Below the pieces are notes generated by a model that was given only the letters and a program-made list of their open reading frames with translations, searched no databases and was not told the DNA's origin. Shown in pieces: positions 1-1,099 of a DNA stretch of 1,099 nucleotides; position 1 is the stretch's first letter, and every line of letters starts with the position of its first letter. Location: NCBI RefSeq assembly GCF_003334255.1, contig NZ_QOWU01000175.1, one strand, 5' to 3'. Origin of the DNA: Escherichia coli (GTDB taxonomy: Bacteria; Pseudomonadota; Gammaproteobacteria; Enterobacterales; Enterobacteriaceae). Made by a program: the position numbers and the translations under genes.

Positions 1-68
1 CCACCACTCATCACCAGAAGCCCGGCCAGAGAAGATGACAGGAGTGTCATTGTAAACTTTTTACTCAT
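1..68 (-). CDS. 5' end of a gene continuing beyond the window start; N-terminus resembles a signal peptide or membrane anchor (product unknown)
   Basis: ATG at 68..66 (minus) preceded by CAGGAT with an 8-nt spacer; translation [23 protein letters not shown] has a basic n-region (KK) followed by a hydrophobic stretch; codons are typical enterobacterial (CTG, GCC, GGG). Only 22 complete codons are visible, so the call is weak. Confidence 0.4.
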   Translation of the reverse strand, partial: [22 protein letters not shown]

Positions 69-76
69 TATGGATA

Positions 77-80
77 TCCT
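77..80 (-). promoter_or_regulatory. Shine-Dalgarno-like AGGA for the gene starting at 68
   Basis: Minus strand reads CAGGATATCCATA-ATG; AGGA at 80..77 lies 8 nt from the ATG at 68..66. Confidence 0.35.
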
Positions 81-103
81 GTTAAATTATCTGTATACAA
101 ATC

Positions 104-144
104 AGCCGTAACACACTCATAAAAAAGTCTGATTAATTACGGCT
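104..144. repeat. Perfect 8-bp inverted repeat AGCCGTAA (104-111) / TTACGGCT (137-144) with 25-bp spacer
   Basis: Read directly from the sequence; lies 36-76 bp upstream of the minus-strand ATG at 68. Function (operator or RNA stem) unknown. Confidence 0.5.
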
Positions 145-164
145 TTATTCAGGATATTCCGAAA

Positions 165-194
165 ATAAATTTAAAAATTAATTTTATAAATTTA
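165..194. repeat. 9-bp direct repeats ATAAATTTA (165-173 and 186-194) flanking a perfect 12-bp A/T palindrome AAAATTAATTTT (174-185)
   Basis: Read directly from the sequence; repeat spacing is 21 bp (about two helical turns) in a stretch that is almost pure A/T. Confidence 0.4.
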
Positions 195-258
195 GGATTT
201 GTCTTACATTATTCTGGGCATACCTGCTCACGCATACGACCACACCGCCGGAACAGAT

Positions 259-345
259 ATCAGAAAAAACTTACCCCAGTCAGACTTGCTGTTTCACATC
301 TGCTTACACTGTAATTTGTGAACAAAATTACAACATCAGAAAAAA
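259..345. repeat. Exact 11-bp direct repeat ATCAGAAAAAA at 259-269 and 335-345
   Basis: Read directly from the sequence; on the minus strand both copies read TTTTTTCTGAT, and the 335-345 copy follows the hairpin at 346-361. Confidence 0.4.
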
Positions 346-361
346 TTAACTATTCAGTTAA
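340..361 (-). terminator. Weak terminator-like hairpin plus T-run downstream of the 427..1008 CDS
   Basis: On the minus strand, TTAACT-GAAT-AGTTAA (plus 346-361) is followed immediately by TTTTTT (plus 340-345). The stem is only 6 bp with a single G:C pair, so predicted stability is low. Confidence 0.2.
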
Positions 362-426
362 CATGAAATATTTACAGGAGGAATAGTTCATGAGGGAAAG
401 AAATGTTTCCCCCATATTTTTATCTG

Positions 427-1008
427 TTATTCCTGTGCCCAGCCAACCCTGTATGCCAGTATCTCATCCGCACTGGTCAGCTTTTCCAGCTCTTTCTTCA
501 TGGTGCGCTGCCGGACGTGGATTTCCATCCCTTTGGTAAACATCGCCTGCTCTGCAGCAGCACTCAGAGCAATCAGTGTTTCAGCGTCCATCGGTACGTC
601 ATTATTGTCCGCATCCGTCCAGAAAAACTGCTCCGGCAGTTTCCCCGCTTTCGCTGCCGCCACCGACGGCTCAAGACGCGTCTGCGTTGACTTCCCGTAG
701 TCCCATTTACGCCCATTGTGCTCAAACGTGTAGTTCGCCGCTTCCATCGCATTACGCCAGGCGTTGATCCCGGCGGTTTTGAGTTCTCTGGCTTTTTCCG
801 GGCTGATGGATGGCTGTACATATTCTGCAATTTCACCGGCCTCTCCTCTCAGACAAGCGGCATAAATATCCCGCCCGTATGCTTCGGTATCGCTGGCTGT
901 TGCAGTGAAAGGAACCGCCTGCTCAATGTGCTCAAACTTCACCATGCAATTGACAGCAGTGTGCTCTTTATCTGCCCATTGCGGATTGCTTATTTTTTCC
1001 ACATTCAT
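427..1008 (-). CDS. Phage tail-associated protein, tail-fibre-assembly/chaperone-type (possibly DUF4376-like C-terminal region); 193 aa from the SD-supported start
   Basis: Only long ORF with protein-like composition (six-frame track 427..1083, stop TAA at 427-429). Minus strand reads ACAGGAG-ATG-AAC-ATG: AGGAG at 1015-1019, ATG at 1012-1014 (0-nt spacer) and ATG at 1006-1008 (6-nt spacer), so 1008 is the best-supported start, giving MNVEKISNPQWADKEH... A further in-frame ATG at 1081-1083 overlaps an upstream stop (TAATG) and is an alternative start. Family call rests on remembered similarity of the C-terminal stretch (FFWTDADNNDVPMDAETLIALSAAAEQAMF...EILAYRVGW) to small prophage tail-fibre-adjacent proteins; no search was run. 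Confidence 0.78.
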   Translation of the reverse strand: MNVEKISNPQWADKEHTAVNCMVKFEHIEQAVPFTATASDTEAYGRDIYAACLRGEAGEIAEYVQPSISPEKARELKTAGINAWRNAMEAANYTFEHNGRKWDYGKSTQTRLEPSVAAAKAGKLPEQFFWTDADNNDVPMDAETLIALSAAAEQAMFTKGMEIHVRQRTMKKELEKLTSADEILAYRVGWAQE

Positions 1009-1014
1009 GTTCAT

Positions 1015-1019
1015 CTCCT
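1015..1019 (-). promoter_or_regulatory. Shine-Dalgarno (AGGAG) for the 427..1008 CDS
   Basis: Plus-strand CTCCT at 1015-1019 is AGGAG on the minus strand, 6 nt upstream of the ATG at 1008..1006. Confidence 0.55.
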
Positions 1020-1099
1020 GTCTGTCAGTATGCGCGCTGGAACAGCCCGATGCCTTCATTGTCATTTGTCGACGTAATTTCATTACACACCATCCATGA

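Follow-up and report, generated by a model that had tools for sequence, protein, structure and literature searches.

The window analysed here, a stretch of 1099 nucleotides of Escherichia coli DNA, begins inside a minus-strand reading frame of which only the start is present, and this raises the question of what protein the gene encodes and whether it belongs to a system that is new. The original prediction, which was made from the letters alone, described a truncated minus-strand gene with a signal-peptide-like N-terminus and treated it as candidate cargo, possibly the visible edge of a novel system. In what follows we argue that window 1-68, on the minus strand, is almost certainly the 5′-terminal part of an eib gene (eibC or eibE), and hence of the gene for an immunoglobulin-binding trimeric autotransporter adhesin. 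The start of eibC/eibE is already known and no novelty is borne out, and the window is accordingly assigned to a published virulence-associated prophage locus and struck from the candidate novel systems. The window holds no more than 68 nt of the gene, and for whatever is said below about the protein past residue 23 we rely on other records in which the flanks are identical.

The gene start and its identification

Read on the minus strand from position 68 to position 1, the window gives ATG AGT AAA AAG TTT ACA ATG ACA ..., with the start ATG at 68-66 and a frame that runs past the window edge after 22 residues and two bases of a Gly codon. The features of this part of the window are as follows.

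1-68, minus strand: almost certainly the 5′ end of an eib gene (eibC/eibE type; 22 codons and 2 nt), from the translation and from 100.0% identity to AF151676 and AF151674
77-80, minus strand: AGGA, Shine-Dalgarno-like, 8 nt 5′ of the ATG, read from the sequence

The sequence around the AGGA does not vary among five of the six eib upstream regions that were aligned. By a rough estimate the chance of meeting 22 open codons in random sequence is about 0.35, so that an edge frame of this length is not in itself beyond chance, and the case for a gene therefore rests on external comparison, which we regard as decisive. In the GenBank records of E. coli ECOR-9, eibE, eibC and eibD are all annotated as beginning at this ATG, and the first 23 residues are identical in 108 of the 120 closest database proteins (best 120). 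The truncated minus-strand gene of the original prediction is thus confirmed as an annotated eib start in GenBank and as a 487-codon coding sequence (CDS) in complete genomes, and the 23-residue N-terminus, as it was then written, agrees with the translation of window 1-68. It was also correct that most of the gene lies outside the window, since the reference loci have 487 (EibE) or 504 (EibC) codons, and a search for early closure of the frame found it open over that whole length. The statement that the N-terminus resembled no specific known protein did not survive, as it is identical to that of EibC, EibD and EibE of ECOR-9.

The plus strand offers a competing frame, a frame-1 open reading frame that extends from window position 1 to the TAA at 109-111 and is open across 1-108 in the window, and which the original prediction had named as the possible true gene. 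Followed into the flanking sequence of an identical locus (L001 7935-8111) it amounts to only 58 codons, with a product beginning VFPHLPSPMAYGTVYFSS... that has no homology support; it is annotated in none of the RefSeq/GenBank records opened and lies on the strand opposite a CDS for which the homology evidence is overwhelming. That the true gene lies on the plus strand is extremely improbable, and we continue with the minus-strand eib frame.

The identification of that frame rests on matches to phage records and to complete genomes. By megablast against the phage records, window 1-1037 has 100.0% identity to both AF151676.1 (P-EibE) and AF151674.1 (P-EibC), and a base-by-base check counted 0 mismatches in 1037 nt to either, while AF151675.1 (P-EibD) has 99.0% identity to the window. 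The source of all three records is E. coli ECOR-9, and they have a common coding-strand layout in which orf-191 is followed by an annotated stem-loop and then by an eib CDS starting at the equivalent of window position 68. The remaining part of the window, 1038-1099, lies past the end of AF151676 and AF151674. The set of 5,426 complete E. coli genomes contains nine in which at least 99% of the window is covered, and each of these has a YadA-like family protein annotated over this gene start; the best four complete genomes show 99.8% identity, with two mismatches at 1054 and 1061. In NZ_AP022815 the frame is a 487-codon CDS annotated "YadA-like family protein", the product of which is identical at 486/487 residues to the database protein named EIBE_ECOLX in UniRef (Immunoglobulin-binding protein EibE, Swiss-Prot).

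The choice between eibC and eibE lies beyond the reach of the window, because both records match it perfectly and the two proteins diverge only after approximately residue 170: the gene start, the whole upstream region, orf-191 and the first 23 residues are the same in EibE and EibC of ECOR-9, with no difference over 1-1037, and it is only past about residue 170 that the sequences of EibC (504 aa) and EibE (487 aa) part. This is a property of any short window that holds only the start, which cannot separate eib paralogues as their leader and promoter region are exactly common to them. The nearest complete genomes carry the EibE type. EibD (AF151675; 2XQH and 2XZR) has the same signal peptide through residue 27 and an upstream region that is 99.0% identical, with a length of 511 aa and an overall identity to EibE of 76%. 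ECOR-9 carries eibA, eibC, eibD and eibE (PMC5450701).

The eib genes are mosaic, and in the source genome the gene could be another mosaic allele or a decayed copy in place of the reference eibC or eibE, the intact start being the part for which the window itself vouches. In favour of this are the mosaicism itself (EibC and EibE common to about residue 170, EibC and EibD similar over the C-terminal half), the occurrence in STEC genomes of 332- and 414-aa 'YadA C-terminal domain-containing' variants after related upstream regions, and the two mismatches (1054 and 1061) that separate the window from the best complete genomes. Against it stand the 100% identity that the window shows, across the full 1037 bases in common, with both ECOR-9 records (eibC and eibE), the YadA-like annotation in every one of the nine genomes covering at least 99% of the window and the intact CDSs, of 487 and 485 aa, in the two loci that were opened (H1 and H5). 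We consider an altered or decayed allele quite unlikely, and take the reference type, eibC or eibE, as the gene that starts in the window.

The encoded adhesin and its signal peptide

Domain and structure searches on the full protein, which had been proposed at the outset as a check, were run on the 487-aa product of a locus 99.8% identical to the window. In Pfam a YadA_anchor domain (PF03895) is found at 429-487 (E 2.3e-15) and YadA_head repeats (PF05658) at 149-257. The PDB sequence search matched 2xqh, the EibD head-neck-stalk, over residues 151-396 (E 3.9e-92), as well as the YadA anchor 2lme (E 1.1e-17) and the EibD stalk fragment 2xzr. The NCBIfam model YadA_autotrans scored 116.7 bits against a cut-off of 750, and as this is far under the cut-off the protein is filed as YadA-like and not as YadA; NCBIfam is without an Eib model, and its matches were restricted to the YadA, Ata and EmaA 'exception' models, all far under their cut-offs. 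From its sequence the protein is classified as a trimeric autotransporter adhesin (TAA) of the Eib group, type Vc. The Eib family was described in 2000, and for EibD there is a crystal structure (2XQH). The architecture is the same as that of YadA of Yersinia, namely a signal peptide, head repeats, a coiled-coil stalk and a C-terminal 4-strand anchor; the two differ in that YadA is plasmid-borne and collagen-binding whereas the Eibs are prophage-borne and bind the Fc region of immunoglobulin (PMC7247748).

From what is established for this family, the Eib pre-protein would be taken through SecYEG by its signal peptide, after which signal peptidase I would be expected to cut it following VSA26. 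The YadA-type C-terminal anchors of three chains would then build one 12-stranded barrel in the outer membrane, and the head, neck and coiled-coil stalk would be exported via this barrel to form a surface 'lollipop'. The surface structure formed by Eibs drives aggregation and chain formation. All six Eibs described (A, C, D, E, F and G) are TAAs, they bind IgG Fc, and some also IgA, in a non-immunological manner, and they confer both serum resistance and adherence (PMC7247748). The multimers that Eibs form are heat-stable and run at >120 kDa (PMC5450701). The eibC/eibE locus is that of an antibody-Fc-binding, serum-resistance adhesin of commensal E. coli and LEE-negative STEC. A preprint places IgG-binding residues at 'EibE D378-Y388'; residues 378 and 388 of EibE are R and Q, and this numbering was not used.

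The part of the protein that is encoded in the window is most of its leader. The n-region, MSKK, is basic through K3 and K4, and is followed by a hydrophobic h-region at approximately residues 7-20 (Kyte-Doolittle 11-residue means of 1.4-2.0, falling to <0 from residue 19 on) and by a c-region that begins SGG inside the window, which agrees with the basic n-region and hydrophobic core read originally. A VSA cleavage motif (V24-S25-A26), with small residues at -3 and -1, is found 1-3 codons past the window edge, and the absence of a visible cleavage site in the window is explained by this position. No difference separates EibC, EibD and EibE up to and including residue 27, and the passenger N-terminal domain of EibD diverges directly after Q27, which is an independent pointer to the signal peptide ending there. 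On the basis of the -3/-1 rule and this point of divergence between paralogues, a Sec signal peptide of 26 residues is predicted, with the cut at A26/Q27. This length, together with the lack of a match to the extended signal peptide region model ESPR (PF13018) in the Pfam scan of the full protein, indicates an ordinary signal peptide and not the extended signal peptide of some autotransporters. More distant eib-like genes retain the leader pattern with conservative changes, for example MSKKFTKTLLSSSLVGLLFVSA.

With the cleavage site not visible in the window itself, the N-terminus might be read as a lipoprotein signal or as an uncleaved membrane anchor instead of a signal peptidase I signal peptide. 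A lipoprotein is excluded because the first 40 residues of the full-length protein contain no Cys and so no lipobox (L-x-x-C), in keeping with the original observation that none was yet visible. Against an uncleaved anchor, VSA|Q comes after the hydrophobic core, and the outer-membrane anchor of the full protein is C-terminal. The literature likewise treats the Eib leader as a removable Sec signal peptide: Eib signal peptides were removed with SignalP before modelling (bioRxiv 10.64898/2025.12.25.695649), the native EibD signal peptide has been used for surface display and export of EibD and EibA, and TAA signal peptides drive Sec translocation (PMC12511318). There is next to no likelihood in either of these readings, and a cleaved Sec signal peptide is the one that we retain.

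The prophage setting and the boundary of the module

The rest of the window consists of phage genes and of the region that separates them from eib, with the following features.

69-384, minus strand: AT-rich stretch (GC 0.24-0.47) that precedes eib, travels with it and forms the left part of its moron, from comparison with an eib-less prophage
389-416, minus strand: hairpin directly 3′ of the stop of the tail-fibre-assembly (DUF4376) gene, fold -13.2 kcal/mol, z -3.1
427-1008, minus strand: DUF4376 protein of 193 aa (ORF-191 of Sandt & Hill; tail-fibre-assembly-like), from RefSeq and from GenBank orf-191E/C/D
1025-1099, minus strand: 3′ end of a side tail-fibre gene, last 25 codons (lambda ORF-401-like), from RefSeq annotation

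The DUF4376 gene matches the PHROG family phrog_1141, 'tail fiber protein' (E 2e-79), and the gene before it is annotated in RefSeq as a 'prophage tail fiber N-terminal domain-containing protein', which ends at L001 9025; in P-EibA this place is taken by orf-401. In complete genomes the genes run in the order J, (lom), tail fibre, DUF4376, eib, orf-156, a YkgJ remnant, tRNA-Ser and the hya operon, which puts eib at the extreme end of a lambdoid prophage integrated at a tRNA-Ser gene. At the start of the DUF4376 gene (1006-1014) there are two in-frame ATGs (MNMNVEK), the first being the GenBank start of orf-191 (195 aa) and the second the RefSeq start (193 aa); an AGGAG lies directly against the first ATG, and its spacing is more suitable for the second.

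The extent of the eib insertion is defined by an eib-less prophage at the same serT/hya (tRNA-Ser/hya) site, in which homology to the window ends exactly at 385 and is followed by the YkgJ remnant. From this jump the inserted module is made up of window 1-384, the rest of eib and orf-156, and it spans approximately 2.7 kb (L001 5663-8384). The eib signal peptide and the 316-nt upstream region thus make up a single portable module, the edge of which is sharp and lies at window 385. Window 1-384 is present in 40 of the 5426 complete E. coli genomes, always beside a YadA-type CDS. The boundary at 385 lies just past the hairpin at 389-416, at the edge of the shared phage backbone, and forms a sharp moron junction. 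The hairpin has no U-tract on the minus strand, and the terminator scan lists it for the plus strand only, so that it is not a canonical terminator for minus-strand transcription. In many genomes the match to the window is confined to 1-768/800 or to 439-922, which suggests recombination break-points inside the DUF4376 gene (765-800 and 922), the 3′ part of which often travels with eib.

Behind eibE there is a strong terminator hairpin with a U-tract (-24.3 kcal/mol, z -3.2), and eibE is on this ground probably its own transcription unit. eib is therefore a lambdoid-prophage moron placed after the tail-fibre genes, with its own AT-rich upstream region and terminator, and to this extent the candidate cargo of the original prediction has been upheld. 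The novel system to which that cargo was thought possibly to belong finds no support, the gene start being identical to that of eibC/eibE, a published family. Nor is there a multi-gene secretion system, as the protein is a self-contained type Vc autotransporter with a strong terminator after its gene. Among the closest parallels are the lambda-type morons lom and bor at the tail-fibre end of lambdoid prophages, which like eib code for accessory surface proteins, are inserted within or behind the late tail genes and have an upstream region and a terminator to themselves. Eib appears together with Lom and Bor in a list of phage-borne virulence cargo (PMC8065619), and an Ail/Lom gene is present in the same prophage as eib. 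In contrast to lom and bor, eib belongs to a different protein family and has a different site, after the tail-fibre-assembly gene at the prophage end, at attR/tRNA-Ser.

The upstream region, orf-156 and possible regulation

An AT-rich spacer of 358 nt separates the DUF4376 gene from the eib start. Two features of this spacer, and one gene outside the window, are considered here.

84-102, minus strand: 19-nt block ATTTGTATACAGATAATTT, invariant in six diverged eib upstream regions (alignment A3, columns 329-347)
166-194, minus strand: A+T-only inverted repeat, GenBank 'stem_loop' (L004 2584-2612)
L001 6045-6518, minus strand: orf-156, outside the window, about 90 nt 3′ of eibE; also present as orf-156C/D/E/A in L004-L006 and L010

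The 19-nt block sits 18-36 nt 5′ of every eib start examined (n=6), that of the otherwise-diverged eibA included. It holds a perfect palindrome, TGTATACA (99-92), and a -10-like GATAAT (91-86), the latter being listed, with a poor -35, in a loose promoter scan. From this conservation we infer that the block at 84-102 is a putative regulatory or promoter element. A further palindrome, GGATATCC, at 72-79, extends into the ribosome-binding site in five of the six eib upstream regions. Strict minus-strand scans for a sigma-70 promoter 5′ of eib returned none, and a looser scan gave only matches of 8/12; the lack of a convincing sigma-70 promoter is compatible with activator dependence, and does not show it. 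PMC7649339, in a passage that cites Sandt et al. 2002, states that eib expression is activated or enhanced by ibrAB, and static growth enhances Eib expression (PMC5450701). The annotated 'stem_loop' at 166-194 was rejected as a structured element, as its fold reaches only -2.5 kcal/mol (z -0.84) and is not stable as RNA. An Rfam scan of the whole window returned two chance-level matches (E 0.7-0.8), far under the gathering scores, and no known RNA element is claimed for the 358-nt spacer.

The gene orf-156 is linked to eib in all eight of the loci that were opened, and its family is confined to E. coli. Searches with the orf-156 protein found no significant match in Pfam, NCBIfam or the PDB sequences. 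Its AlphaFold model (pLDDT 85.6) was compared by Foldseek, and the top 44 ranks are all NarL/FixJ-type response regulators, the best matches being RcsB, EvgA, LiaR and VpsT, with a best E of 1.7e-3 (marginal), a probability of up to 1.0 and TM values of 0.33-0.48. A conserved C-terminal motif, LTMSEMVVMFGY..P..LA.EMG...KTV..FLY, resembles a LuxR-type helix-turn-helix, and the receiver-like half is truncated and is without the acidic pair after strand 1. On the modelled fold, orf-156 is possibly a truncated RcsB/NarL-like receiver joined to a LuxR-type helix-turn-helix, and it may act as a dedicated regulator; with marginal Foldseek E-values, the regulator reading is a lead only. Some novelty could still come from a local circuit in which orf-156 acts on the ATTTGTATACAGATAATTT block (102-84), or alternatively from a new mosaic eib allele past the window edge, and we hold this to be rather unlikely.

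The eib and orf-156 module appears to be portable and to cluster with other autotransporter cargo. In other elements an eib-like gene with orf-156 is also found behind giant (~8.3 kb) genes with LPD38/LPD5 domains, which replace the tail-fibre-assembly genes, and the coordinates of the module in such and related loci are L007 2925-5361, L009 2914-5327 and L005 2366-6373. The gene that frequently follows next after the eib and orf-156 module encodes a serine-protease autotransporter of the S6 family (Eaa; EaaA/EaaC).
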